32,000 bases of DNA from Candidatus Thorarchaeota archaeon (GTDB lineage: Archaea > Asgardarchaeota > Heimdallarchaeia > Hodarchaeales > Hodarchaeaceae): contig JBHLRO010000028.1 of NCBI GenBank assembly GCA_048882505.1, forward strand, positions 1 through 32,000, given 5' to 3'. Positions 1,890 through 31,779 of the stretch are shown one piece after another. The position numbers and the translations under genes were made by a program. Under the pieces are notes generated by a model, which worked only from the letters and a program-made list of their open reading frames with translations, was not told the origin of the DNA and searched no databases. The first letter of the stretch is position 1. Each line of letters starts with the position of its first letter.

Positions 1890-2660
1890 TCAATTCCGGC
1901 TATTATAGAAATTGTTGAAATTTTTACCGACGATAGTTAAAAGAATAATCAAGGTAAACAATCCTGCGGTTCCAGCAACGATAGTACTTGTCGCGAATTG
2001 TTTGACAATAATTCCTATGAATGCCCAAACAGCAACTAATCCGTATGCAACGTCATTTCTGGTCATAACTAAAATCATTGCGAGAACAGTCGCGACAAAT
2101 AGCACGATTCCTGTCCAAATTTCAGCCCCAACACCGAATCCATCCCAATCTATTGATAAGAAGAATACAGTAGTGTTGGCTATTGTGGCTACGGAGATCC
2201 AACCCAGATATACACTGAAAGGGACGTGAACTGCCCACTTTGTTCGTGGGTCAACCTCTATCAGTCCTATTTTTAATCGCCAATAGATCCCAATCAGAGT
2301 AAACAGAAGTCCAATCATTACGACCAAGGAGAGGAAGATCTGTTCGTAATGCCATAGAAAGATCCAAAGTGAATTAAAGATATTACTGATAATAAAAAGA
2401 CCTGAAAGAGCCGAATCGAATACTTTTTCTCTATTAACGGTCTGATAGAGCACGAAGACAATTAATAACGTATATATTATGCTCCAAATCGAAAAGACAT
2501 ATCCAGCTGGCGTAAAGGGGTTAGGATAGCCATCGGATAGTTCTTGGGTCGTTTTACCATTTAATGGGAGTGTAATTGCCAAAAAGTTGACAATTACCGT
2601 CATAATTAATGATATTATGTTTCCTATTGTAAACAACGAATTTTTTTCAGTTGATAACAT
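1890..2660 (-). CDS. TspO/MBR-related tryptophan-rich sensory membrane protein (long, about 8-TM form)
   Basis: PNPFTPAGYVFSIWSIIY, FNSLWIFLWH, and PFSVYLGWISVATIAN motifs; Trp-rich TM helices; AGGAG RBS upstream of ATG 2660. Confidence 0.75.
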   Translation of the reverse strand: MLSTEKNSLFTIGNIISLIMTVIVNFLAITLPLNGKTTQELSDGYPNPFTPAGYVFSIWSIIYTLLIVFVLYQTVNREKVFDSALSGLFIISNIFNSLWIFLWHYEQIFLSLVVMIGLLFTLIGIYWRLKIGLIEVDPRTKWAVHVPFSVYLGWISVATIANTTVFFLSIDWDGFGVGAEIWTGIVLFVATVLAMILVMTRNDVAYGLVAVWAFIGIIVKQFATSTIVAGTAGLFTLIILLTIVGKNFNNFYNSRN

Positions 2661-2714
2661 GCGCGTTTGCTCCTAATTTTGTAATCTGTGGTTTTTTCAC
2701 GTGTTTTACCCAAT

Positions 2715-3665
2715 CTATGGTTTTACTGAATTGGGAAGAATATCGTGAATGAATACAAACAAATGATGATCTGAGGTGATCTGAGTATCTACTTCACCGA
2801 AAATATTTCCATGTTTTTGTAGGGCTTGTCCGCCTACTGCGATTTTTATCCTATCCTTGAAATGGGCTTTAATCTCCCTTATTTCCCGCAACAAGGTTCC
2901 GATAAATGCGTCAATAGTGACTGAAAAGCATATCCAGTCAGGTTTGATAGCCTGATCTTCTATATACTGAATTAATGATTTTATTGGTAGGGTTCTCCCC
3001 AAATTGACAACTCGATGTCCATTTTCACGCAGTAATAGCTCCAAGGCCAGTAATCCTATTACATGCTCTTCTCCCTCAACGGTAACCAATAGAACTGTTG
3101 CCTTGCTTTTATCCAGTTTTTGGGGAATCAACTGGATGATAAATTTCTCCAGCCTTGACGAAATGACATGTTCTTCGGCTGTCGTGAGAATTCCTTCCTC
3201 CCATCGTCTCCCTACTTCAACTAATAATGGTTTAATGAATGCGGTAACCAGCTGAAAGTGATCACTATATCTATCAGCGATTTCCTTGTTGAATATCACC
3301 ATATCATAGTCGTCGGAGATCAGGTTCTCGATATACGTGTCAAGAAGCTCTTGAAAGGAATGGTTTACATCATCTTGTAAGACAGTTTCTGATTTGGGCG
3401 GCACATCTCCAGGGGGCGGATTGTATTCTTTGGGATGAATATATCGGTGTTCAATGATATCATTTGCAAGTGTGATAACTGTATACTTACCCCGCTTGAG
3501 TGGTCGTCTTTCAATATTGATTAAGTTACGATATTGAAGTTCCTTGATCGCGTTAGAGATTGTTGAAAGTTTAAGGTTACAGGATACTTTGATTTCTGAA
3601 ACGGGGATTTCTCTTCCTCTATTTAACCTAAGATAATTTAGGATGACTTCTTTTGATGATGTCAA
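2715..3665 (-). CDS. cobalamin-binding transcriptional regulator, CarH/LitR-like sensor with N-terminal winged HTH
   Basis: aa 5-67 wHTH (VSEIKVSCNLKLSTISNAIKELQYRNLINIER), then a Pro-rich linker. Cap domain W155-x9-E165-H166. Rossmann B12 motif E199-x-H201-x2-G204, S248-x-T250, G278-G279. TTG start. Confidence 0.85.
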   Translation of the reverse strand: MTSSKEVILNYLRLNRGREIPVSEIKVSCNLKLSTISNAIKELQYRNLINIERRPLKRGKYTVITLANDIIEHRYIHPKEYNPPPGDVPPKSETVLQDDVNHSFQELLDTYIENLISDDYDMVIFNKEIADRYSDHFQLVTAFIKPLLVEVGRRWEEGILTTAEEHVISSRLEKFIIQLIPQKLDKSKATVLLVTVEGEEHVIGLLALELLLRENGHRVVNLGRTLPIKSLIQYIEDQAIKPDWICFSVTIDAFIGTLLREIREIKAHFKDRIKIAVGGQALQKHGNIFGEVDTQITSDHHLFVFIHDILPNSVKP

Positions 3666-3708
3666 GAGGTGTTCCCGCAGTTATTGTTCAATATCGGATA
3701 TGATTTAA

Positions 3709-4653
3709 CTAAATTTTCCTTAGGTATTCTAGTCTTACTTTAGAGGCGAGAACAAGTTTTCGAACCTTTGATACAACAGCCCTCTGGGTTAAAATTTGAT
3801 AATCTTGCCGTTTGATCTCATTCAAAATCTCACCATAAACTCTTGAGGCAACTTTAACCGTGTAAGCGGCTGCAGGTGGTAAATCATCAATTCCCAGATC
3901 TGCCTGCTTATAATAGCTATTCGCTCTTTCTGATTCATATCGGATTAATCGTTTCAAATCCTCAGTGACTACGTCCTTTTCAAGATCTACCGTTGAAACA
4001 TTATACATTTTTCTAGTTTTTTCAGGCAGATAAATACGTCCTTTATTGAAATCTTCCTTAATATCACGTAGTATATTTGTCAGTTGCATGGCTTTACCAA
4101 GATCTGATGCCCTTGCCAATGTACTAGGGGCAGGGTTGTCTAGAAAGATATAGGTCATCATTAGGCCAACAGTGCTAGCGACGCGGTACATATACAGGTC
4201 TAATTCTTCATCAGTTTTGTATTCCTTCTTTATTAAGTCCATACGAACACCTTCTATTAATTCATGCATGTATTCGATCGGAATACGATGTTTACGAATT
4301 GTGTCTCCGAAGGCCTGTAAAATCGGCTCCGATGACGTGTACCCGTGAGCTAATCGTGTAATCGTTTCTTTGAGATTATCTAGTTCCGCATTAATAGCCT
4401 CATTGGATGTGCCGTCCGGCGTCTCATCTACGATGTCATCGGTCAAACGACAGAATGCATATAACGCGGCAACAGATTTACGTTGCTCTGAGGGGAGAAA
4501 CCGGGACGCGAAGTAGAAAGACTTACTGTGGATTTCCATCCACTCCAGACAATGATTATAGCTTTCTTCAAGAGATTCCTTGACAAGATTGAACCTATTA
4601 TTCCAAGTTTCTGGAATTAACCCATAGTTCGTCTGTTCATGTGTTGAATACAT
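3709..4653 (-). CDS. crtB: phytoene synthase
   Basis: HSKSFYFASRFLP, YAFCRLTDDIVDE (first Asp-rich motif), YMYRVASTVGLMM, LGKAMQLTNILRDIKED (second motif), and GRIYLP. Confidence 0.95.
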   Translation of the reverse strand: MYSTHEQTNYGLIPETWNNRFNLVKESLEESYNHCLEWMEIHSKSFYFASRFLPSEQRKSVAALYAFCRLTDDIVDETPDGTSNEAINAELDNLKETITRLAHGYTSSEPILQAFGDTIRKHRIPIEYMHELIEGVRMDLIKKEYKTDEELDLYMYRVASTVGLMMTYIFLDNPAPSTLARASDLGKAMQLTNILRDIKEDFNKGRIYLPEKTRKMYNVSTVDLEKDVVTEDLKRLIRYESERANSYYKQADLGIDDLPPAAAYTVKVASRVYGEILNEIKRQDYQILTQRAVVSKVRKLVLASKVRLEYLRKI

Positions 4654-4707
4654 CGTTTTGTCACTTACGAGAGTTTTATTTCTTGAGTAGGGCTTTTTTC
4701 CACATTA

Positions 4708-4763
4708 TTTATAAACTTCATGAAGCGATATTCATTTCATGAAATATATGAATTTTCATGTAA
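4708..4763. promoter_or_regulatory. divergent crtB/crtI promoter: palindromic TATA box plus three-fold palindromic operator array
   Basis: TTTATAAA at 4708-4715. CTTCATGAAG at 4716-4725, TTTCATGAAA at 4735-4744 and TTTCATGTAA at 4754-4763, with centres exactly 19 bp apart. Confidence 0.6.
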
Positions 4764-4784
4764 TCAGGGTCAGTAGAAAATAAA

Positions 4785-6383
4785 TTGATGAAAATACCTA
4801 AAACTGAAATAAATACTATCGGAGACGTATTTCCAATGATTAAGGAAGAAAATGGAAGATTTAAAACCCACAAAGACCAGGTCATCATTATTGGTTCGGG
4901 TTTCGGGGGTTTAGCAGCAGGAATCCGTATGCAGAATGCTGGTTTCAAGGTTAAAATACTGGAAAGGCGAGATCAAATCGGTGGTAGAGCTGGAGTCTAT
5001 AAGATTGATGGATTCAGCTTTGATGCTGGACCAACAGTGATAACGGCGCCTTTTATATTTGAAGATTTATTCAAATTGGCAAACCGTGATATAAATAATT
5101 ATATGGAGCTTTTACCGGTAACACCGTATTATCGAATTCATTTTGATGATCAAACTTATTTTGATTATGGTCATCCCGAAGATAATATTCCTCAAATCGC
5201 GGAAATGAGTCCAAAGGACGTAGAGGGGTATGAAAAGATGCTGGAAGCCATTGAACCTATATTCAAAAAAGGGTTCCAAGAGCTCTCGTTTAAACCCTTT
5301 ACAACGTTCTCTAGCATGCTTAAGGTTGCTCCTTCGTTACTTAAGCTTCAATCATATCGCTCCAATTACAATTTTGTATCAAAGTACATCAAAAATGAAA
5401 AATTACGCCGTGTTTTCTCATTTCATCCCCTCCTCATAGGGGGAAATCCCTTTACTGTCCCTTCAATTTACAGCTTGATCCAGTATTTAGAAAAGACATA
5501 TGGGGTTTGGTTTGTCAAGGGTGGAACGACAAGTCTTGTTCACGGACTTGCTACTCTTTTTACCGAATTAGGTGGAAAAATCATATTAAATGCTGAAATC
5601 TCAGATATTAACATAGAGAATGGCCGAGTTACTGGAGTAACAACTGAGGATGGGCATAAATATCCGTCTAATACTGTGATTTCGAATGCCGATGTTGCAT
5701 TTACCTACACCAAACTGATAGAGAGCAAATGGCGTAAAAAGAATTCAGATAAACGCTATAAAAAGGCAAAATATAGTATGGGACTCGTGGTCATCTACTT
5801 TGGAACCAAAAAACAATATCCAGACATGAAACACCACACAATACTTCTAGGAAGTCGTTATAAAGGATTACTTGAGGATATATTCAAGAATAAAGTTTTA
5901 TCGGATGATTTTTCTAGTTATTTGCATGTTCCAACTCGAACAGACCCCAGCCTAGCTCCAGAAGGCCATGAAACCTTTTACATCCTAATTCCAGTACCTC
6001 ATCTGGATTCGGGAGTGAATTGGGAGGAGTTAGCTGAGCCCTTCAAAGAAAAAGTCTTTACTTTTTTGGAGGAGAATTACCTTCCTGATCTCAAGGAAAA
6101 TTTGGTTGTCGAAAAGGTGTTCACTCCGCTAGATTTTCACACCGAATACCTCGCTACCAAAGGATCGGGATTCTCTCTTGAACCTATTTTTACTCAATCG
6201 GCTTGGTTCAGACCTCATAATCGATCAGAAGATATAGAGGGTCTTTACTTCGTGGGAGCTGGAACTCATCCCGGTGCTGGCCTCCCTGGCGTTGTTTCAA
6301 GTGCTAAAATCACCACAGATCTAATTCTGGAAGATCTTAATGGTGGTTCACCTAATCTTGCCCCTGGAGCTTCCATTAATTAA
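4785..6383 (+). CDS. crtI: phytoene desaturase (CrtI-type FAD-dependent carotenoid desaturase)
   Basis: IIIGSGFGGLAAG FAD motif, FDAGPTVIT, FSFHPLLIGGNPF, and C-terminal YFVGAGTHPGAGLPGVVSSAK signature. Start may be ATG 4788. Confidence 0.95.
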   Translation: MMKIPKTEINTIGDVFPMIKEENGRFKTHKDQVIIIGSGFGGLAAGIRMQNAGFKVKILERRDQIGGRAGVYKIDGFSFDAGPTVITAPFIFEDLFKLANRDINNYMELLPVTPYYRIHFDDQTYFDYGHPEDNIPQIAEMSPKDVEGYEKMLEAIEPIFKKGFQELSFKPFTTFSSMLKVAPSLLKLQSYRSNYNFVSKYIKNEKLRRVFSFHPLLIGGNPFTVPSIYSLIQYLEKTYGVWFVKGGTTSLVHGLATLFTELGGKIILNAEISDINIENGRVTGVTTEDGHKYPSNTVISNADVAFTYTKLIESKWRKKNSDKRYKKAKYSMGLVVIYFGTKKQYPDMKHHTILLGSRYKGLLEDIFKNKVLSDDFSSYLHVPTRTDPSLAPEGHETFYILIPVPHLDSGVNWEELAEPFKEKVFTFLEENYLPDLKENLVVEKVFTPLDFHTEYLATKGSGFSLEPIFTQSAWFRPHNRSEDIEGLYFVGAGTHPGAGLPGVVSSAKITTDLILEDLNGGSPNLAPGASIN

Positions 6384-6397
6384 ACGGAGGAGGATAT

Positions 6398-7231
6398 ATG
6401 TTAACCTACTTAGATTTTCTTATCTATTTCATTTTTTTACCCTTTTTTGGGGTTTTCCTCATAAATTTATTTGAATCACGTAGGAAAAAAGGCAAAAAAC
6501 AGACGTTATTAGGAATTAATCCCGTGATGGGGCTTTTTATTTTAAGTACAATTGCTTTAATTTATACTACGCCTTGGGATAATTATTTGGTGGCAACAGG
6601 TGTTTGGTTTTATGAACTAAATCAGATTTTGGGGATCATCATTGGTTTTGTACCAGTCGAGGAGTACATCTTTTTTGTTGTCCAACCCCTATTGGTCGGT
6701 TCAATCGTCATATGGGGTCTAAATTATTATCAACCCAGCTCAATACAACCAAAAAGCAGATCCTTAATAAGATCAATCGGTTTCTTGACGTTTTTCTTAC
6801 CGTGGATTCTCTCTCTCATCATTTTTATTTTAGATTTTCCGAATGGAACGTATTTAGCGTTAATCATTATGTGGTTTTTCCCTCCTATTCTACTCCAATT
6901 GGGATTTGGAGCTGATATTCTCTGGAGTCATCGAAAACTCGTTTTACTCGCGATCCTCATTCCATCCCTTTATCTCTCCGTGGTTGATGCATACGCAATC
7001 TTCAATGGTGTGTGGACGATAGCTCCAACAACCTCTTTAGGCATTTTGATTGGTGGAGTTCTGCCATTAGAAGAAATGGTTTTCTTTTTTGTCACAAACA
7101 TTCTGATTGTCTTTGGTTTTATACTACTGATGGATGTTCATAGTCAAAAACGGATGAGATCATTAGTAACGTTCCTGAAAAACGTGTTATTATACAGATT
7201 TATTGGTAAAGAAAAGAGAACCGTGTCATAA
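6398..7231 (+). CDS. crtY: lycopene beta-cyclase, fused two-repeat membrane (CrtYcd) type
   Basis: Two repeats: YTTPWDNYLVATGVW...GFVPVEEYIFF and VVDAYAIFNGVW...GVLPLEEMVFFF. GGAGGAGG RBS 15 nt after the crtI stop. Confidence 0.9.
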   Translation: MLTYLDFLIYFIFLPFFGVFLINLFESRRKKGKKQTLLGINPVMGLFILSTIALIYTTPWDNYLVATGVWFYELNQILGIIIGFVPVEEYIFFVVQPLLVGSIVIWGLNYYQPSSIQPKSRSLIRSIGFLTFFLPWILSLIIFILDFPNGTYLALIIMWFFPPILLQLGFGADILWSHRKLVLLAILIPSLYLSVVDAYAIFNGVWTIAPTTSLGILIGGVLPLEEMVFFFVTNILIVFGFILLMDVHSQKRMRSLVTFLKNVLLYRFIGKEKRTVS

Positions 7232-7243
7232 GAGTGAATAATC

Positions 7244-7720
7244 ATGTCTAAAGTGCAATCCAACTCGATTTTGAGAATAAATCTATCTAAATCTTATTTT
7301 CGGGTAGTAATTCTCCTCACATATCTATTGGGGATATCATTAATGCTGGTGCGGATTATCACCAACAGTACGTTTGCTGAGCTTATACCTTTCTGGTACG
7401 ATGCATTAGTAGCATTAGGAGGGATTTACGGAGGTGGATTATTACTATTGGCGCTAAGGAAATCAAAAATAGTCATTTCTCACCCCGTAGACAGATTTGC
7501 TTTCTATTTAATTGCATTTCACTTATTGGCGGCAACAATTGGGCATGTTGCTATGATTTTAATCCAAAACCATGAGATACTGAACCTCATTTCTCTTGAA
7601 ATGGTATATCTCCTTCTCGGAGGAATGATCACACTAACATTGTACAGTTTCAGAATCAAAGGGGATTACCACAAGGAAAAGTCCACGAAGATTCCCAGTA
7701 TTAATCCGTACAAACAGTGA
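7244..7720 (+). CDS. hypothetical 4-TM membrane protein, likely last gene of crtI-crtY operon
   Basis: Starts 12 nt after the crtY stop; four hydrophobic segments; overlaps the convergent gene by 55 nt. Confidence 0.65.
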   Translation: MSKVQSNSILRINLSKSYFRVVILLTYLLGISLMLVRIITNSTFAELIPFWYDALVALGGIYGGGLLLLALRKSKIVISHPVDRFAFYLIAFHLLAATIGHVAMILIQNHEILNLISLEMVYLLLGGMITLTLYSFRIKGDYHKEKSTKIPSINPYKQ

Positions 7721-8112
7721 TTTCCTATACTTATGTAAACAAATTTTGGATAGGAGAAAAGATTATTGCCAGTTAACCATTTATGGACAGGTGCTAACGT
7801 TACCAGCCACACAATCAGTGCATATGTTACCCCTACCACCACTAATATGTTTTCCATTTTCAACAAACTTACTAGAACAAGAAAGGGAATGGCGAGTAAT
7901 CCCCCATTGAAGAAATGGAGCAGATATACCAAGATGTTCGTTTCTTGGATTGGCCTTCCGAGGAATTTTTCTATCATACCTTTCGACTCATCCCACTCTA
8001 AAACACCTTGAAATCCCCATTTACGCCAAACGAGAATATTTCCAATTGACATAATCCCAGTCGCTAATATTCCCATTATAAATCCTTTAACGATTAGAAA
8101 AAAAATGTCCAT
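7666..8112 (-). CDS. 4-TM membrane protein with conserved His (DUF6789-like), paralogue 1
   Basis: GILATGIM, LLHFFNGG, YALIVW, HKWLTGNN, NHCLYGLILG. Confidence 0.7.
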   Translation of the reverse strand: MDIFFLIVKGFIMGILATGIMSIGNILVWRKWGFQGVLEWDESKGMIEKFLGRPIQETNILVYLLHFFNGGLLAIPFLVLVSLLKMENILVVVGVTYALIVWLVTLAPVHKWLTGNNLFSYPKFVYISIGNHCLYGLILGIFVDFSLW

Positions 8113-8129
8113 ACAAGCGCCACTTCATG

Positions 8130-8543
8130 TTAGAATAGCCATAGAAGAATTCCGGAATAAAGAAGGTGTGAAAAGAAGCTCGTAAGAAGCTGTCCTCTTT
8201 GTTGGAGGATATTCTCTCCAGTAATGGGTTTATGAATTAGAAGGAGTCCAATCCATAACATTAGGGCATAAACAAGTGCAAGCAAAGGAGTCATTGTAAT
8301 TTCAAATACCCACAGAACTATACCTAAGGCGGTTGCCCCTAACACTCCATGAAGATAATGTAAAGGAGTTGCTTTCCAATATAATTCTTCCCAAGAGTAG
8401 CTCGGAAATATTTTAGTCAGCAAATGGGCATTTTCATAGAATTCGGGGACAATTCTTTTGTCATAACGCCAGATTAACACCAGCTGTGGGATTGTCATGC
8501 TCGTAGTAGCTAGGATACCAATAATAACCCATCTGATTATCAA
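8130..8543 (-). CDS. 4-TM membrane protein with conserved His (DUF6789-like), paralogue 2
   Basis: GILATTSM, LHYLHGVLG, YALMLW, HKPITGEN, SHLLYSGILL; same motif order as the 7666-8112 product. Confidence 0.7.
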   Translation of the reverse strand: MIIRWVIIGILATTSMTIPQLVLIWRYDKRIVPEFYENAHLLTKIFPSYSWEELYWKATPLHYLHGVLGATALGIVLWVFEITMTPLLALVYALMLWIGLLLIHKPITGENILQQRGQLLTSFFSHLLYSGILLWLF

Positions 8544-17905: not shown

Positions 17906-20368
17906 ATGACACAGGCACTAGTTGAAAGGTTGAATGCAAGAACGATTGAAGGGGATCTGTATCGTTTAATACCTGAGAAACCTGAATTCGTTCAATGTTA
18001 TGCGTGTGCTCATTACTGTAAAATTAGGAACAATCGTTCTGGCATATGTAAAATCAGATTCAATGACAATGGGGTCCTGAGAGTTCCGTATGGCTATGTG
18101 GGCGCATGGCAGTGTGATCCGATTGAAAAAAAACCCTTTTTTCACGCGTTTCCTGGAACCCATGCCATGTCCTTTGGAATGCTGGGATGCGATTATCACT
18201 GTGGGTATTGTTTTACAGATGATACTGTTGTCATAACTGATAAAGGCCCTGAAACATTTAAACAGTTATTTAACTCTGTTGATGCTATTCAAGAAACTCA
18301 CGATGGATACATTGGTTTTAAAAACGACCTTAGAGCTATCACTTCTTCTGGTAAATTGAGAGATGTAAAGGGTATATTTAAACATAAATATAAAGGGAAG
18401 ATGGTAAAAATAAATCCCCTATATTTACCAGAAATAAAGTGTACAAGTGATCATGAAATTTATGCCACCACTAACCCTAATATTAAACCAGGAAAAGTTA
18501 AAGCGAAACAATTAACAAAAAATCACCTTCTTGCAATTCCACGAAGCTATTCTTTTTCTTCGCCCCAGCTTGTTAAAGTCGATCAAGTCCTAAATCAGCA
18601 TGAATTCAACTTCAATCCTAGGTGGAAATTATCTGTTGAAGAACGTAATTTTATCATGTCCGAAACTGAAAAAGGAAAATCATCTAATGAAATAGGAGAA
18701 ACACTAGGGAAAAGTGGTTCATATATTCGGCATGTTAGAAGCAAAATGAGGAAGGGATTAGGCTTAGATAAAAGAAAAGGAAAAATCATCATTGAAGATA
18801 ATAAAATGAGATTTTCTAACGAACGTAGACCAGGAATCCCTGTTGAAATTCAATTTGATGTTGACACTGCGAGGTTATTTGGACTTTACTGTGCGGAAGG
18901 ATGTGTTGTAACTGATGAAAGCAGACCTAATAGCTATAAAACCAATTTCACTTTTTCACATGAGGAAGAACATTTTGTAAAGGAAGTACGAAATTTAATT
19001 ACAAAAATTTTTGGCATTAGTGCAAGGAAAGTAATTAGAGAAGATACCATAGCGGTTGCGGCAGGGAAAACTTCGATTGGACTATTATTCAAATATTTAG
19101 TTGGAGTTAAAGCTCTTGAAAAGAAAGTTCCGGAGTATTTATTCGATGCTCCAAGAGAAGTGGTTGAAGCCTTTGTTAATGCATATATAGATGGTGATGG
19201 CCATAGGTACGAAAGTAGTAAGGTTTCATCTAGTACTGTTTCAATTGATCTAGCTTATGGTATTGCTTGGCTAGTTTTAAAACTAGGATATTTACCCTCC
19301 ATATATATTAATAAAATGCCAGAAAAAACAGAAATACTAGGAAGGGAAGTAAATCAAGCTGAATTTTTGTATAATGTGGTTTGGTATGAGAATTCAAATG
19401 TTGAAAGAGAATTTCATGTTACTGATGAGTATTTTTTGATACCAATTAGATCATTGAGTCAATTTGACTTTGATGATTATGTTTACAATATGGAAGTAGA
19501 GAATGAACACAATTATCTAGCAGGATTCTTTTTGGTAGCTAATTGTCAAAATTGGCTTACGTCTCAAGCTCTAAAGGATCCCCGAGCGAGCGCCAGATCG
19601 ACGGTTAATGATATCACCCCACAGGAGTTTGTAAACAAAGCCCTGGATCTTGATGCGAGAGTGGTAACATCTACGTATAATGAACCGCTGATTACGTCTG
19701 AGTGGGCTGTAGCAATCTTCAAAGTGGCACGGGAAAAGGGACTAGCGACTTCGTACGTATCTAACGGGAATGCCACCCCCGAAGTTTTAGACTATCTAAA
19801 ACCCTATTTGGATCTATATAAAATTGATCTGAAGACGTTTCAAGATAAGAACTATCGAAAGTTAGGGGGAACGTTAGAAGCGGTTCTTAAAGGGATCAAA
19901 GGTGTCTTTGAGAGAGGAATGTGGTTAGAAATAGTTACATTAATTGTCCCGTCTTTTAATGACTCTGATGAGGAACTACAACAAATCGCGGAATTCATTG
20001 CAAACATTTCCCCTGATATCCCGTGGCATGTGACCGCATTTCATAAAGATTATAAAATGACAGATCCAGACAACACTTCTGTCGAAACTTTAGTTCGTGC
20101 TGCAAAAATTGGCGAAAAGACTGGATTAAATTATGTATATGCAGGCAATTTGCCTGGTCAAGTGGGTAAGTTTTCTCATACACGATGTCCTCAATGTGAG
20201 CATACGTTAATTGCGAGACACGGTTTTGAAATCACCGACTTCGCATTAAACGTGAATTATGAAGAAAAAAAGGGATATTGTCCTAAATGTGGAGAACAAA
20301 TTCCAGGGAGATGGGAAGAACCTCCAGAAAGAAACTCACGGCTTCATTTTAGTCGATTTCTCAGTTGA
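17906..20368 (+). CDS. amrS: AmmeMemoRadiSam system radical SAM enzyme, intein-containing precursor (375 aa after splicing)
   Basis: VQCYACAHYC, DPIEKKPFFHAFPG, GCDYHCGY-[intein]-CQNW, TYNEP, YVSNG, KIDLK, WLEIVTL, PWHVTAFH, YVYAGN, and C-terminal CPQC...CPKCG. Confidence 0.93.
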   Translation: MTQALVERLNARTIEGDLYRLIPEKPEFVQCYACAHYCKIRNNRSGICKIRFNDNGVLRVPYGYVGAWQCDPIEKKPFFHAFPGTHAMSFGMLGCDYHCGYCFTDDTVVITDKGPETFKQLFNSVDAIQETHDGYIGFKNDLRAITSSGKLRDVKGIFKHKYKGKMVKINPLYLPEIKCTSDHEIYATTNPNIKPGKVKAKQLTKNHLLAIPRSYSFSSPQLVKVDQVLNQHEFNFNPRWKLSVEERNFIMSETEKGKSSNEIGETLGKSGSYIRHVRSKMRKGLGLDKRKGKIIIEDNKMRFSNERRPGIPVEIQFDVDTARLFGLYCAEGCVVTDESRPNSYKTNFTFSHEEEHFVKEVRNLITKIFGISARKVIREDTIAVAAGKTSIGLLFKYLVGVKALEKKVPEYLFDAPREVVEAFVNAYIDGDGHRYESSKVSSSTVSIDLAYGIAWLVLKLGYLPSIYINKMPEKTEILGREVNQAEFLYNVVWYENSNVEREFHVTDEYFLIPIRSLSQFDFDDYVYNMEVENEHNYLAGFFLVANCQNWLTSQALKDPRASARSTVNDITPQEFVNKALDLDARVVTSTYNEPLITSEWAVAIFKVAREKGLATSYVSNGNATPEVLDYLKPYLDLYKIDLKTFQDKNYRKLGGTLEAVLKGIKGVFERGMWLEIVTLIVPSFNDSDEELQQIAEFIANISPDIPWHVTAFHKDYKMTDPDNTSVETLVRAAKIGEKTGLNYVYAGNLPGQVGKFSHTRCPQCEHTLIARHGFEITDFALNVNYEEKKGYCPKCGEQIPGRWEEPPERNSRLHFSRFLS
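18209..19543 (+). mobile_element. intein with LAGLIDADG homing endonuclease, 445 aa
   Basis: Starts CFTDDTVV (Cys1), block B TSDH, blocks C/E LFGLYCAEG and FVNAYIDGDG, block F VYNMEVENEHNY, ends FLVAN before Cys+1. Removal restores CxxxCxxC. Spot counts suggest lower GC than the flanking exteins. Confidence 0.96.
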
Positions 20369-26415: not shown

Positions 26416-29328
26416 TTGGCAAGTAAAAAATTAAGGAACAGATTAAAACTTGTTTTAAAGAAGATCTTTCAATTTGAGGATATGGATCTGGATTTTGGGA
26501 TTTATCGTATCCTTAATATCAAGAAAAAGGAAATTTCCGATTTTATTGATAAGGAATTATTTGAGGTAATTGAAAAGGAATTAGGGAAATCAGAGACGGA
26601 AGAGGTAGTCGAAAGGCAGATTTGTGACCATATGATCAATTTCTTTTTACGATACTACGACAATGGCGATTTTATATCTAAACGACGATATTCTAAAACG
26701 AAGAAGTATGTAATACCCTATAACGGAGAAGAAGTTTATCTATATTGGGTAAACAATGACCAATATTATGTGAAAACAAGTGAGGATTTTAAAAATTACA
26801 GATTCATGATCGACGGCCTAACAGTTGAATTTAAACGGATCAATGACGAATTTGAAGTAAGAGGAATTAGTATTACGAATTCGGAAAAGAGATATTATAT
26901 TTTTAGGGGATTAGGATTTGAAAAATCTGTTAACACATTGGAACTGAAATTTGCCTATCGTGGATTGACAGAAAAGGAAATTGAAGCGATCAAAACTACC
27001 CTAAACAAGAATTCTATAAAAAAGGAATATGTCAACGCCTTCAACATCAAGAATGTTCTTGATCAAACCAAAACCACGGTTTTTCCCAAACTAGCCAAGA
27101 AGCACCTCAAAATGAATGGGGAGGAATCAGAGCTTTCTGAGCTCGCCTGGCATTTAAACAGATATACAACCAAAAACACTTCTGATTATTTTATTCACAA
27201 GGATTTGAGAGGTTTCTTAAATCAAGAATTGGACTTCTATATTAAGAGCGAGATATTTTCTATTACCGATTTCGAATTAGAAGCAGAAAAATCTCTTATA
27301 ACGAAAATTGTCCCCGCGTTCAAAACTATATGCCAAAAACTAATAATATTCCTGGCTCAAATAGAGGATTTTCAGAAAAGACTGTGGGAAAAGAGGAAAT
27401 TTGTCATTTCAACGAATTATTGTTTGACTTTGGATCATATTCATGAAAAGCACTACCCTGAGATTCTGGCGAATGAAGAACAACTAAGGGAATGGAGAAC
27501 GTTATTCAATATTGATTTCGAGGAAATAAAGAGAGAACGGGGATCCAAGAACATAACTGACAATGGTGGATACCGTAACATTGATTTTCTTAAGAGATTT
27601 CCAACATTAGTTCTCGATACCAGATTCTTTGATTCGGAATTTAAATATCGGATACTAAGTGAAATTAGGGAATTGGATAGCAGCATTAATGGAATATTAA
27701 TCAAGTCCAATAATTACCATGCATTAAATCTAATTCTCAACAAATACAGAGAAAAGGTAAAATGCTGCTATATTGATCCCCCGTACAACACTGGCAATGA
27801 TGAATTCCTATATAAAGATAATTATCGTCATTCCAGCTGGCTTACGATGATGTATGAGCATTTGATGTTGGGGAGGGAACTTCTTAACGATGAAGGGTCT
27901 CTTTTTGTGAGTATCGATGATAATGAAATGGACCATTTACGGTTATGTCTTGATCACGTTTTTGGTCGTGATAATTTTATCGAGCAATTGACTATTGTAT
28001 CAAATCCCAGAGGGAGATCTTTAAGAAAATACATTTCTTCGGTTCATGAGTACTGTTTGGTATGCGCAAAGAACATTGAAGCCGAATCAATCTATGGACA
28101 AGAGCCAGATAAAAAAAGGAGAGCACACTATAACGAAATTGATGAGCTGGGACAGTTTCGATGGTTAGAATTACGAAACAGAAATCCAAAATTCAATGCC
28201 AAAAATAGGCCAAACCTGTTTTTTCCTATTTATGCCAATCCTGTTACATATGAAGTATCTTTGACTGAAAAGGAAGATTGGATTAAAGTAGAACCGCTAG
28301 ATAGCAAGGGGACTGAAGATTGTTGGACTTGGGGGAAGGAAAAGGTACGTAACAATCTCAAATTTCTAAGGGCGAAGAAAACAAAGAATATGAACTGGAT
28401 TATCCAAAGAAAAGATTATTTACATAAAGAAGATGGTACAATTAAGTTGAAAAAGCCGTTTTCGGTTTGGGATGAGCGAGAGATGAATACTGAAAAGGGT
28501 ACCGAGATATTACGACATCAATTTGGCTATTTACCTTTTGATTTTCCAAAATCCCCATTTTTCATACAAAAAATTGTCGAGATATCCACTCGTTCAAATA
28601 ATCAGGAGATAATTCTAGATTACTTCGCTGGTTCAGGGACAACTGGGCAAGCCGTACTTAATCAAAATAAGAAGGATAAGGGAACACGAAAGTTTATATT
28701 GGTGGAAATGGCGCAATATTTCGAATCTATTCTATTGCCAAGAATAAAGAAGGTGATTTTCTCAGAAAATTGGTTAAATGGTGAGCCACAAGATAAAAAT
28801 GGGATTCCTAGGCAAATCCTCAAATATCAATCTTTGGAACAATACGAAGATTCATTGCTCAATATCGAGTTTGTTGAGCCAAGATCAAGTGTAAAGGAGT
28901 CTAAAGATTATAAATTAAAATATATGTTGGATTATGAAACGAGTACCAATAATATCTTCTTGAATCTTGATTTTCTAGACAATCCCTTTGGTTACAAGCT
29001 AAAAATAGAAGAGAACGGCAAAACAAGGGAGGTTAACGCGGATCTCGTTGAAACATTCAACTATCTTGCAGGAATCGATGTTAATTTCATTTATTTAAAA
29101 AATGATGCCGAAATTAGGTATATTTTTATAAAAGGACAACAAGGAGAAAAGTCAGTATTTGTGGTCTGGAGGAACAAGCCTGAATCCTTCAATCCTGAGC
29201 GTGATAAAGAATTTGTTGAACGAGAGATCGCTAATGACAAATACGATGAAGTGTTTGTCAATGGTAACTCTCTCATCAGAAATGCCAAACCAATCGATGT
29301 TGTTTTTAAGGAAGAACTGTTCAGGTGA
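26416..29328 (+). CDS. mod: type III restriction-modification DNA adenine methyltransferase (Mod, beta class)
   Basis: LDFGIYRI N-terminus, YWVNNDQYYVKT, YIDPPYNTG (motif IV), LDYFAGSGTTGQA (motif I), LEQYEDSL. Confidence 0.92.
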   Translation: MASKKLRNRLKLVLKKIFQFEDMDLDFGIYRILNIKKKEISDFIDKELFEVIEKELGKSETEEVVERQICDHMINFFLRYYDNGDFISKRRYSKTKKYVIPYNGEEVYLYWVNNDQYYVKTSEDFKNYRFMIDGLTVEFKRINDEFEVRGISITNSEKRYYIFRGLGFEKSVNTLELKFAYRGLTEKEIEAIKTTLNKNSIKKEYVNAFNIKNVLDQTKTTVFPKLAKKHLKMNGEESELSELAWHLNRYTTKNTSDYFIHKDLRGFLNQELDFYIKSEIFSITDFELEAEKSLITKIVPAFKTICQKLIIFLAQIEDFQKRLWEKRKFVISTNYCLTLDHIHEKHYPEILANEEQLREWRTLFNIDFEEIKRERGSKNITDNGGYRNIDFLKRFPTLVLDTRFFDSEFKYRILSEIRELDSSINGILIKSNNYHALNLILNKYREKVKCCYIDPPYNTGNDEFLYKDNYRHSSWLTMMYEHLMLGRELLNDEGSLFVSIDDNEMDHLRLCLDHVFGRDNFIEQLTIVSNPRGRSLRKYISSVHEYCLVCAKNIEAESIYGQEPDKKRRAHYNEIDELGQFRWLELRNRNPKFNAKNRPNLFFPIYANPVTYEVSLTEKEDWIKVEPLDSKGTEDCWTWGKEKVRNNLKFLRAKKTKNMNWIIQRKDYLHKEDGTIKLKKPFSVWDEREMNTEKGTEILRHQFGYLPFDFPKSPFFIQKIVEISTRSNNQEIILDYFAGSGTTGQAVLNQNKKDKGTRKFILVEMAQYFESILLPRIKKVIFSENWLNGEPQDKNGIPRQILKYQSLEQYEDSLLNIEFVEPRSSVKESKDYKLKYMLDYETSTNNIFLNLDFLDNPFGYKLKIEENGKTREVNADLVETFNYLAGIDVNFIYLKNDAEIRYIFIKGQQGEKSVFVVWRNKPESFNPERDKEFVEREIANDKYDEVFVNGNSLIRNAKPIDVVFKEELFR

Positions 29329-29334
29329 GAATAA

Positions 29335-31779
29335 ATGGGAAAAAGGGATCATAGAAAACTTCAGAACTATCTGATCTTGAACAGATTCATCTCTTCATTT
29401 TTCTCATTAAAGAACATGGCAGAATTTAGAAAAGAACTAAAAAACGTACAGAAAGGGATTAGTTCGAACAAAAAGTTTTTCTTTACCGAAATTGTGCAAA
29501 CCCTGCCCATTTCTGATGAATTTCGTCTCAAGCTGGATTTTTATGATGAGAATATTCAACAATATCTCAAAAGGATTAATACCAAACGAAAACCTCCTAT
29601 TGACCTTACGTATTTTCAATATCTAGCGATTTTGTTCACAGAAATCTACCTTGATAACTTCTTCAACAATTTTGATTTGTTCTATCACGACTATGTACGA
29701 TTTGTCGTTGAACAAAACCATATAGAAACCCCAAATAGTTCTAATCCATATCCCAAACCTAAGAAGGGAAATATGCGAAAATTATGTTATTGGTCTGCCA
29801 CGGGTAGTGGTAAGACCCTTATCATGCATTTTAACATGCTTCAGATTTTAAAATACACGAATCACAAATTCGACAACATGCTTCTTGTTACCCCTCCTGG
29901 TGACACTCTATCTTCGCAACACATTGACGAATTAGTCCATAGTAGCATCAAGAATAAACGGTTTGATAAGAAACAATCAGACATAGCAGATTATTTTACG
30001 GATATGTATGTTCAAGTTATAGAAATTTCTAAAATAAAGGAGGAGGTCACCTCTCAAGACGGATTATCAGTCCCAGTGGAGGTTTTTGGGGAAAACAATC
30101 TGGTTTTTGTTGACGAAGGGCATAAAGGGCATTCTTCGGAAGCCAAGGTTTGGCGAAGTTTAAGGGAACAATTAGTGGGCGAAAAGGGCTTTACATTTGA
30201 GTATAGTGCGACGTTCGCTGAAATTTCAGGGAAGGATGAGACATTTAATGAATATGCGTCCACAATTATTTTTGCCTATCGTTATCGATCTTTTTACGAG
30301 GATGGATATGGTAAAGATTATTCAATCCTTAATTTAAAGAATGCGAGAGACTATGGAGATGAATATTTTACAGGAGCCCTACTTTCGTTATATGAGCAAA
30401 AACTTTACTTTAAGAATTATCAAACGGCGGCTAAAGAATTTTTAATTAATAATCCCTTAATGATCTATGTTGGAACCTCGGTGAGTGGGAAAAGAAATCG
30501 GTCCGATGTTTTTTTTGCGTGTAAGTTCTTTTCTCAATTTATCAGGGGTAGGAATAAGTATGAGAACTATATTAAAGATATTCTAACAAATAAATCTAGT
30601 CTACTGGATGAAAATAACAAATCCATTTTCCAATATAAGTTTCAATATCTGAAAGACCTTATTGGAACGAACCAATTACAGCTCGGTGACATTTATGCTG
30701 ATATGCTTGAATTATTGTTTCATTCAACAACCTCAACCAAGATCCGCTTTATAGAGATTAAAAAAGTAGAGGGAGAGATTGGATTAAAATTGGGGCCGAA
30801 ATATTTCGGATTAATCAATATTGGGGATGTTGCGACATTCTTAAAACTCGTTGAACAGGAAGATGATTTTATACATGGGCAACCAACCCACCTAGAAGAA
30901 TCATTGTTCAAACAAATAGAGGAAGAAGCATCACCAATAAATTTCCTCCTTGGCTCCAAGAAGTTTAGTGAAGGGTGGAATTCATATCGTGTCTCGTCAA
31001 TGGGGTTACTAAACATCGGAAAAAAGCGAGGCGCCCAAATCATGCAAATATTTGGACGCGGTGTACGTTTGAAGGGTTATAATAATCTTCTGAAGCGTTC
31101 TTATGCAATCAAAAGCGATCCACACGGTAACATCAGTATAAATATTCCCCAATATTTCACTATTCTTGAAACCCTGAATATTTTTGGTCTTAATGCCGAT
31201 TATATGGCGATATTCCGAGAAAATTTGAAAGAAGAAGGATTAGCAGAATTCGGGATCTCCAACGGTTTAAGAAAGTTTGATGGTTTAAAAGAAGCTCAAA
31301 CTTATTTAAATTCGCCTAAAATGTCTAGTATGTTCGAAAATCAGGTACAAATCACCTCATTGCAGCATTCAATCCCTGAAGTTAGAATTGATCTGGGTTC
31401 AAAGATAGGCTTTCTTGATTCTCGGAGAAATGATCCCTCTTCCTATCTGGAAATGCCCCAAGAACGGATTCGATTAAGCGACAATATCCTTGAAATTGTT
31501 GATTTTCAGGAAGTTTATCTCGAACTTCTCAAGTATAAATCCCTGAAAAAATATTTTAACCTTTATTTTACTCAGAAAGACTTGATTCATTTTTTAAAAT
31601 CAGGTAATTACTCCATTTATGGCAATAAAGCGGTTTTTACTCTACATGCTTTCGAAGACTTGGATAAGATCAATAAAATCCAAGGTTACATTATCCAACT
31701 ATTAAAAGCCGTTATTGATAGCTTGTATAGATACAACAAGTCACTTTGGCATGAGAAAACCAAACCTAGACCTAATTAG
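29335..31779 (+). CDS. res: type III restriction SF2 helicase subunit (Res), apparently C-terminally truncated
   Basis: SATGSGKT (Walker A), VDEGH (II), YSAT (III), FSEGWN (V), QIFGRGVRL (VI); 6 nt after mod. No PD-(D/E)xK motif seen at the C-terminus. Confidence 0.85.
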   Translation: MGKRDHRKLQNYLILNRFISSFFSLKNMAEFRKELKNVQKGISSNKKFFFTEIVQTLPISDEFRLKLDFYDENIQQYLKRINTKRKPPIDLTYFQYLAILFTEIYLDNFFNNFDLFYHDYVRFVVEQNHIETPNSSNPYPKPKKGNMRKLCYWSATGSGKTLIMHFNMLQILKYTNHKFDNMLLVTPPGDTLSSQHIDELVHSSIKNKRFDKKQSDIADYFTDMYVQVIEISKIKEEVTSQDGLSVPVEVFGENNLVFVDEGHKGHSSEAKVWRSLREQLVGEKGFTFEYSATFAEISGKDETFNEYASTIIFAYRYRSFYEDGYGKDYSILNLKNARDYGDEYFTGALLSLYEQKLYFKNYQTAAKEFLINNPLMIYVGTSVSGKRNRSDVFFACKFFSQFIRGRNKYENYIKDILTNKSSLLDENNKSIFQYKFQYLKDLIGTNQLQLGDIYADMLELLFHSTTSTKIRFIEIKKVEGEIGLKLGPKYFGLINIGDVATFLKLVEQEDDFIHGQPTHLEESLFKQIEEEASPINFLLGSKKFSEGWNSYRVSSMGLLNIGKKRGAQIMQIFGRGVRLKGYNNLLKRSYAIKSDPHGNISINIPQYFTILETLNIFGLNADYMAIFRENLKEEGLAEFGISNGLRKFDGLKEAQTYLNSPKMSSMFENQVQITSLQHSIPEVRIDLGSKIGFLDSRRNDPSSYLEMPQERIRLSDNILEIVDFQEVYLELLKYKSLKKYFNLYFTQKDLIHFLKSGNYSIYGNKAVFTLHAFEDLDKINKIQGYIIQLLKAVIDSLYRYNKSLWHEKTKPRPN

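Follow-up and report, generated by a model that had tools for sequence, protein, structure and literature searches.

A divergent carotenoid gene cluster with a CarH-type B12-binding regulator, predicted to be light-induced, in a Hodarchaeales archaeon

The stretch of DNA analyzed here (hereafter the window) comprises positions 1–32,000 of contig C28 in the metagenome-assembled genome (MAG; 4.32 Mb in 83 contigs, 94.6% completeness, contamination estimate 3.7%) of a Hodarchaeales archaeon, which belongs to the Heimdall group of Asgard archaea. Its left part holds a cluster of carotenoid biosynthesis (crt) genes together with the gene for a B12-binding regulator. For comparison, 22 genomes of the genus, which are close kin and incomplete MAGs, and 83 genomes of the class were used. 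An earlier interpretation made from the letters alone (hereafter the sequence-only reading) had considered an Asgard host possible, and the nearest orthologs of the cluster proteins indeed carry Candidatus Heimdallarchaeota labels (92–95% identity for three of the proteins). The features of the cluster are as follows.

1890–2660, minus strand: TspO-like seven-helix membrane protein (256 aa), at the end of the leftward string, after a 54-nt gap from the regulator gene.
2715–3665, minus strand: B12-binding regulator (316 aa), with PF02310 behind an N-terminal helix-turn-helix (HTH), after a 43-nt gap from crtB.
3709–4653, minus strand: phytoene synthase CrtB (PF00494, E 9.5e-78).
4708–4763, no strand: predicted divergent promoter/operator, with a TATA-like TTTATAAA and three palindromes, read from the sequence.
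4785–6383 (probable start at ATG 4836), plus strand: phytoene desaturase CrtI (TIGR02734).
6398–7231, plus strand: fused lycopene cyclase CrtYcd (277 aa, two TIGR03462 domains), 14 nt past crtI.
7244–7720, plus strand: orf158, four-helix membrane protein (158 aa) with no family, 12 nt past crtYcd.

The open reading frames (ORFs) lie at exactly the coordinates that the sequence-only reading had given. Its divergent arrangement, with crtB, the B12 regulator, and the tspO-like gene running leftward and crtI, crtYcd, and a gene of no assigned family running rightward, agrees with both the ORF positions and the family matches. These genes are probably transcribed as two divergent units, crtB-regulator-tspO-like and crtI-crtYcd(-orf158), which would share one common spacer.

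As enzymes, CrtB, CrtI, and CrtYcd are ordinary representatives of families already known. CrtB scores 262 bits against PF00494 (cut-off 26), contains two Asp-rich DxxxD motifs (DDIVD and DIKED), and is 67–76% identical to its orthologs in the same genus. Cyanobacterial CrtB models and HpnD models score alike on this protein (216–237 bits), every one under its NCBIfam equivalog cut-off; its substrate, geranylgeranyl diphosphate (GGPP) rather than farnesyl diphosphate, is therefore deduced from the neighboring genes. CrtI scores 598 bits against TIGR02734 (cut-off 238), carries the N-terminal flavin adenine dinucleotide (FAD) motif GSGFGG, and would desaturate phytoene to lycopene in four steps. 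Its orthologs, named phytoene desaturase, show 60–95% identity across Hodarchaeales and Kariarchaeaceae. Because these orthologs are 515 aa long and begin at the residue encoded at ATG 4836, translation probably starts there and not at TTG 4785. CrtYcd contains two TIGR03462 domains (114 bits, cut-off 39), and its motifs VPVEEY and LPLEEM are invariant among 11 homologs, as are PWDN and two PxEE(Y/F)xFF motifs. These matches and the intact catalytic motifs uphold the gene identities behind the earlier assignment of CrtB, CrtI, and CrtY enzymes of beta-carotene type, and the end product is likely to be gamma- and/or beta-carotene. The cluster has no crtE, which the sequence-only reading had explained by the GGPP made for lipids; two polyprenyl (GGPP-type) synthase genes elsewhere in the genome would cover this step. 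A search of the window ORFs of at least 100 aa yielded neither an opsin nor a Blh/Brp or C50 gene, as had been noted before. In the whole genome, no CruF-type hydratase (PF04240) of the C50 route was found, with a positive Haloferax volcanii control, in a search that did not include the LyeJ-type elongase.

The four-gene core, with the regulator and crtB on one side and crtI and crtYcd on the other, is kept in the loci of all 12 relatives. Two of these genomes belong to a different family within the class, and the closed Heimdallarchaeota chromosome CP070695.1 (4,943,496 bp) is also among them. In one relative, G009, a second crtI/crtB pair, diverged to 58 and 70% identity, is found 3 kb away from the main cluster (L017:15415-17917).

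The regulator matches the B12-binding family PF02310 (46 bits, cut-off 32, E 4.7e-12) and consists of a winged-helix HTH (residues ~1–70), a disordered linker, a CarH-type four-helix bundle, and a B12-binding domain of the Rossmann type. W155-x9-E165-H166 (Wx9EH) and E199-x-H201-x2-G204 are invariant in 12 Asgard regulator homologs, and S248-x-T250 and G278-G279 of the B12 motif are also present. Wx9EH and the classic B12 motif together define CarH homologs and separate them from MetH-type domains (Protein motif studies PMC9304148, PMC8156234); Wx9EH, which forms a cap over the adenosyl group, is lacking in MetH-type domains (PMC8156234). In a sequence search of the Protein Data Bank (PDB), TtCarH (5c8a/5c8d) was matched at E ~1e-5, among corrinoid proteins. 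With the AlphaFold2 model of the regulator (mean predicted local distance difference test, pLDDT, of 84), the best Foldseek matches were B12 photoreceptors, namely photocobilin (8j2w), 8jbs/8jbt (the B12 domain of a Chloracidobacterium MerR-family protein, with a template modeling score, TM, of 0.76–0.78), AerR (7te2), and TtCarH (5c8d). A MerR DNA-binding domain was not found in the regulator, and its homologs carry HTH_11, MarR_2, or TrmB domains instead. The family is small, with 44 matches (~41 full-length) in 5.8 billion clusters, and every full-length member with an organism name is labeled as Asgard. The next matches are bacterial MerR-CarH proteins, aligned over the B12 domain only. 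These patterns suggest a CarH-type B12 sensor on an archaeal-type winged helix, confined almost entirely to Asgard archaea; it would be CarH-like in its working, yet it misses one defining feature of the CarH family, the MerR domain. No paper linking CarH to Asgard archaea was found among those searched.

The spacer between crtB and crtI contains TTTATAAA (4708–4715) followed by CTTCATGAAG, TTTCATGAAA, and TTTCATGTAA, three TTCATG(A/T)A palindromes at 4716–4725, 4735–4744, and 4754–4763 with a spacing of 19 bp. Most of the spacers in the 12 relatives hold two or three such palindromes 18–19 bp apart beside a TTTAAATA box, and a degenerate palindrome pair is still present in the distant family. 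The close pair is unique in the 4.3-Mb genome, except for an unrelated repeat with 17-bp spacing. The exact pattern TTCATGAA-N9-12-TTCATGAA was found at 13 sites in the 22 genomes of the genus, 11 of which are at crt promoters and all 11 in cyclase-positive genomes; the reversed-pattern control gave zero. The remaining two sites are intragenic and at the 3' end of a gene, respectively. Beside one such off-crt pair, a region of ~3 kb in G007 has no ORF of at least 60 aa (L115, G007:C4:91800-94790). The conserved palindromes are a phylogenetic footprint of a predicted, dedicated operator. Since the regulator gene belongs to the leftward unit, the regulator would be autoregulated. As for a wider B12 regulon, a pattern search found no further paired palindrome in the genome, although the region upstream of the heliorhodopsin gene described below was not inspected by eye.

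The genome appears equipped to supply the cofactor. It encodes two corrinoid adenosyltransferases, one PduO-type (C8:102309-102830) and one CobA-type (C26:36879-37388), and eight ORFs with B12-binding domains, and it looks like that of a heavy cobalamin user. A genome search found neither CobS nor a BtuF-type cobalamin-binding protein, and corrinoids are therefore probably salvaged and then adenosylated. The access to adenosylcobalamin (AdoCbl, or AdoB12) that the sequence-only reading had postulated could thus be met from salvaged corrinoid. That reading had also proposed a genome search for blh/brp, opsins, cobalamin transport, and adenosyltransferases; an opsin-type gene (a heliorhodopsin) and the adenosyltransferases were found, whereas blh/brp and BtuF-type transport were not.

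Taken together, these findings point to a light-induced (derepressed) module for beta/gamma-carotene, mainly for photoprotection, under a CarH-type B12 regulator, and we assign this interpretation a probability of roughly 0.65. The lipid pathway would supply GGPP, which CrtB would condense to phytoene; CrtI would convert phytoene to lycopene, and the fused CrtYcd would cyclize lycopene to gamma- and/or beta-carotene. In the dark, an AdoCbl-loaded oligomeric regulator would sit on the TTCATGAA palindromes of the shared spacer, which abut or overlap the TATA box and the transcription start, and would block the TATA-binding protein, transcription factor B, and RNA polymerase. Ultraviolet, blue, or green light would cleave the Co-C bond and the oligomer would fall apart, and both units, including the regulator's own gene, would then be transcribed. 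The main role may be the protection of membranes against photo-oxidative damage, with a retinal pool for the heliorhodopsin of the genome as a possible second role. AdoCbl binding, the light response, repression, and the physiological role of the module are inferred from sequence features and structural models. The light-inducible module proposed by the sequence-only reading is thus supported by the CarH motifs, the fold, and the conserved operator, with the product and the light response remaining predictions.

Several observations weigh against this interpretation. The source sample is a sediment metagenome, in which light was possibly scarce. The sequencing runs that contain this DNA are sediment or other metagenome runs from three studies, one of them the probable source, and no RNA run is listed among them. 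The SxT block of the regulator lies 43 residues past the G of ExHxxG, not 41. Relative to the TATA box, the palindromes are located toward crtI in this genome and toward crtB in most relatives, so repression would differ in geometry among these genomes. CarH tetramers use their MerR domains to bind direct repeats; given palindromic sites and a different DNA-binding domain, this mode of oligomer and DNA interaction is not simply transferable to the regulator. The lack of detected CobS and BtuF belongs here as well. Finally, CrtYcd of the window is on a long branch, albeit with all conserved motifs intact, and is only ~42% identical to its orthologs in the same genus, compared with ~70% for CrtI (72%) and CrtB.

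The flanks of the core differ among relatives. The TspO-like gene is present in five loci and in the window, a PNPOx-like 150-aa protein in six loci, a Rieske/VanA_C oxygenase in four, a major facilitator superfamily (MFS) transporter in four, and an NmrA-DUF2867 protein with a 240–256-aa membrane protein in three. The Rieske [2Fe-2S]/VanA_C oxygenase genes are near crtYcd in four relatives of the genus (L019:6528-7556, L020:8069-9079, L024:1487-2485, and L027:627-1592). Their products show weak similarity to SdmA, a sterol 4beta-methyl monooxygenase (E 1e-25, well under the cut-off), and are candidate carotenoid-oxidizing enzymes that are not found in the window's genome. In G010, the gene directly 3' of crtYcd encodes a His/Trp-rich membrane protein of 399 aa without a family assignment (L019:8034-9233), and a 41% identical homolog also adjoins crtYcd in an Anaerolineae genome (L047, Chloroflexota). 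No homologs of the accessory genes of these relatives (Rieske oxygenase, NmrA-DUF2867, u120, u139, and u399) were found in the window's genome.

The label "tspO-like" of the sequence-only reading holds as a remote relationship, although the protein itself has no PF03073 match even at E 10. Its 7,676 homologs are named TspO/MBR or tryptophan-rich sensory protein (Asgard and Nitrososphaerales records), the 94% identical ortholog is named TspO/MBR family protein by NCBI, and seven of 20 close homologs match PF03073 (best E 3.8e-7). The AlphaFold2 model (pLDDT 87) has two helices beyond the five of TSPO. Its first five helices overlay BcTSPO (4ryi) with a TM of 0.71 and a probability of 0.99, but with a Foldseek E of 0.5; the TM to TSPO 4uc1 is 0.67. 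The family profile had no match at E 1 or better among PDB sequences. The link to TspO thus appears remote, yet real enough to keep the name. Linkage of this gene with the crt core is seen in G016, G009, G017, and WORE3, and in G007 it is linked to heliorhodopsin.

The other flanking gene, orf158, is probably co-transcribed with crtYcd but does not belong to the conserved part of the module. It has no Pfam or NCBIfam match, and an Atlas feature search stayed below 0.9. Among 40–41 relatives, it is present in G016 only, and it has 10 matches in 1.84 billion representative proteins; these homologs adjoin FtsZ/AAA or alcohol dehydrogenase (ADH) genes and not crt genes. A role as a carotenoid enzyme is unsupported by this distribution, and orf158 was therefore not counted in the pathway. 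Two tandem DUF6789-like membrane proteins are encoded next to it (7666–8543, minus strand), the first of which converges on orf158 with 3' ends that overlap by 55 nt.

The sequence-only reading had also raised a retinal-precursor supply for a rhodopsin encoded elsewhere. The genome does contain one heliorhodopsin (HeR; C1:363764-364525, E 1e-81), whose Schiff-base lysine has the same sequence context as in TaHeR (6is6); a search of the genome with PF01036, run without a positive control, gave no type-1 or schizorhodopsin-like match. In a rival explanation, the module would make beta-carotene mainly as a retinal precursor for this HeR, with cleavage by an enzyme outside the known families. Within the genus, cyclase and HeR go together, as 13 of the 22 genomes have both, one has only the cyclase, two have only HeR, and six have neither. 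In G007, HeR is 4.8 kb from crtYcd and divergent from the TspO-like gene beside it (L016:12676-16829), and its neighbors are an NmrA+DUF2867 protein and a membrane protein of 256 aa that carries an HxxxH motif; the trio of TspO-like, 240–256-aa, and NmrA-DUF2867 proteins is also encoded 3' of crtYcd in G009, G017, and WORE3. In other phyla, too, some HeRs are flanked by carotenoid genes, but genomes with HeR as their only rhodopsin mostly lack a full retinal pathway, and their hosts may take up retinal (bioRxiv 10.1101/2021.02.01.429150). Outside the genus, the association breaks down, with 15 HeR genomes without cyclase and two cyclase genomes without HeR, and the co-occurrence within it may only mark light-exposed lineages among close kin with incomplete MAGs. 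Moreover, no Blh/Brp (PF15461) was found in the genome and none over the cut-off in the 83 genomes of the class, in a search without a positive control, and no RPE65-type oxygenase (PF03055) was found in the genome, with positive controls. Weak matches to the BCD (Blh) model (20–23 bits) in G019 and G005 were discarded, as the former stretch contains stop codons and the latter, which falls in a membrane ORF of 404 aa that shows no homology to any cluster protein, was taken as a chance match. The one extra gene of the operon, orf158, is unlinked to crt genes elsewhere. Retinal supply as the main purpose is therefore unlikely, and photoprotection was ranked first because no cleavage enzyme was found, HeR and cyclase are unlinked outside the genus, and retinal uptake has been reported. 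Of the original proposal, the rhodopsin elsewhere in the genome was confirmed, whereas no known cleavage enzyme was found in the class.

Less likely still is a combined scenario, in which an archaeal-built B12 photoreceptor switches beta-carotene and part of the product is cleaved to retinal for HeR by an enzyme of a new family among the variable flanking genes. Candidates for such an enzyme would be the Rieske/VanA-type oxygenase, the 399-aa His/Trp-rich membrane protein, and orf158. If true, the closest archaeal relatives of eukaryotes would possess a light-sensing chain that is complete and of their own making.

Another explanation, with yet poorer prospects, is that the regulator is a dark-acting sensor of cobalamin availability or redox state, and that the carotenoids stiffen membranes or act as antioxidants without light control. 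B12-binding domains do occur in proteins that are not photoreceptors, and corrinoid proteins top the plain sequence search. The sediment origin of the sample and the unlikeness of DNA-binding domain and operator type to those of CarH also fit this explanation. However, Wx9EH is invariant in all 12 homologs, photoreceptors rank above methyltransferase corrinoid proteins by Foldseek TM-score, and the nearest sequence relatives outside Asgard archaea are MerR-type CarH proteins, all of which argue against it.

That the contig is a mis-binned Chloroflexota fragment bearing an ordinary crt cluster can be regarded as already refuted: although the best CrtYcd matches are in Chloroflexota and some contamination is estimated for the genome, 20 genes are syntenic with G016 (77–99% identity), the core recurs in 12 relatives including a closed 4.94-Mb chromosome, CrtI is 60–95% identical to ~45 Asgard-labeled proteins and at most 59% to bacterial ones, Asgard sequences have their own side of the CrtYcd tree, the regulator family is restricted to Asgard archaea, and the GC content of the contig (0.394) is close to that of the genome (0.411). 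The bacterial contig that would have undermined the sequence-only reading was thus not encountered.

The origin of the enzymes was traced further by scanning 185,579 species genomes (one per species) for CrtYcd. The best matches are almost all from Chloroflexota (40–49% identity), as close to the fast-evolving copy of the window as its orthologs in the same genus. In the CrtYcd tree, which has no outgroup, one branch splits 13 Asgard from 68 bacterial sequences (Shimodaira-Hasegawa-like approximate likelihood ratio test, SH-aLRT, 96). The CrtI tree, rooted on paralogs, unites Hodarchaeales with the second family and Kariarchaeaceae (support 82) and places this Heimdall group as sister to a group of Chloroflexota and Balneolales (support 83); no archaeon outside Asgard is among the 120 best CrtI matches. 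The second family differs from the window more in CrtB (36–38% identity) than in CrtI (63–67%), so CrtB may have been replaced once. These patterns suggest an old exchange with bacteria, in either direction, followed by vertical descent in Heimdallarchaeia. The transfer from bacteria that the sequence-only reading had suggested checking by trees is thus supported only in part: the nearest non-Asgard relatives of CrtI and CrtYcd are indeed in Chloroflexota, but Heimdall sequences group in old clades of their own, and any transfer would therefore be old.

Elsewhere in the window, a radical S-adenosylmethionine protein is split by an intein with a LAGLIDADG endonuclease domain according to Pfam matches (17906–20368). 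In addition, a DNA methylase (N6_N4_Mtase, 970 aa) followed by a ResIII/SNF2 helicase (814 aa) at 26416–31779, where the GC content is lower (0.34–0.36), looks like a type III restriction-modification pair.

Hodarchaeales have been placed nearest to eukaryotes among archaea, and their life with light and oxygen is debated. A dedicated circuit with a sensor, an operator, and cofactor-activating enzymes would be a stronger sign of regular light exposure than a stray rhodopsin gene, and the regulator may be the first B12 photoreceptor of the CarH type to be reported on an archaeal transcription chassis. With its short, defined operator, the regulator could be tested in vitro at once and may serve as a light switch. 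The cluster also sharpens the question of where HeR hosts obtain their retinal.

Carotenoid genes as such are already known from Heimdallarchaeia. In the available parts of the published reports, a lycopene pathway is described for cold-seep MAGs (PMC11193907) and crtB-crtI, as genes for linear carotenoids only, for Ca. Kariarchaeum (PMC12137139); both depict linear carotenoids only, with retinal taken up, and those parts do not mention a cyclase, a B12 regulator, or an operator (PMC11193907, PMC12137139). The CrtI of Kariarchaeaceae groups with that of the window, and the CrtB/CrtI lineage is the same as that of the published genes. New here are the control layer, with a putative CarH-type sensor on an archaeal winged helix and a defined, conserved operator, and the cyclase that would extend the pathway to cyclic carotenes.

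Among bacteria, the crtI-crtB-crtYcd operons of Chloroflexota (Anaerolineae, Ardenticatenaceae, and Caldilineaceae) have the closest non-Asgard CrtYcd (40–49% identity) and CrtI (52–59%), and a B12 regulator of MerR type or a TspO-like gene is also present at some of these loci. However, their crt genes are mostly co-directional, CrtB is only 32–39% identical, and the Asgard sequences form separate clades. The retinal branch of Halobacterium salinarum (CrtB1, CrtI, fused CrtY, and Brp/Blh) and the crt cluster of Sulfolobus with its fused CrtY have the archaeal C40 route that is also predicted for the window, in which GGPP from the lipid pathway is converted by CrtB, CrtI, and a fused CrtYc/Yd-type cyclase to beta-carotene, with a retinal protein in the same genome. 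In contrast to these, the host of the window has no detected Brp/Blh or CruF, its regulation is expected to run through a B12 sensor, its retinal protein is a heliorhodopsin, and no haloarchaeal sequence is among its 120 best CrtI matches. In Rhodobacter, TspO/CrtK lies within the crt cluster, and a membrane protein with a putative TSPO fold is likewise encoded inside a carotenoid cluster here; unlike TspO/CrtK, the window protein is a longer form with seven helices and without a match to the Pfam model.

For the control layer, the CarH/LitR clusters of Thermus thermophilus, Myxococcus xanthus, and Bacillus megaterium provide the comparison. In these, as in the window, the gene for a B12-binding repressor, a predicted one in the case of the window, adjoins and is divergent from crt genes, and the Wx9EH and ExHx2G...SxT...GG motifs, the four-helix bundle and Rossmann fold, and an operator overlapping the promoter are shared. 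The differences lie in DNA recognition: CarH/LitR proteins have a MerR domain and the Hodarchaeales regulator an HTH_11/MarR/TrmB-like winged helix, and their sites are 11-bp direct repeats, whereas those of the window are 8-bp palindromes with 18–19 bp spacing at an archaeal TATA promoter. CarH/LitR clusters are repressed in the dark and released by light, and the same logic would be expected here.

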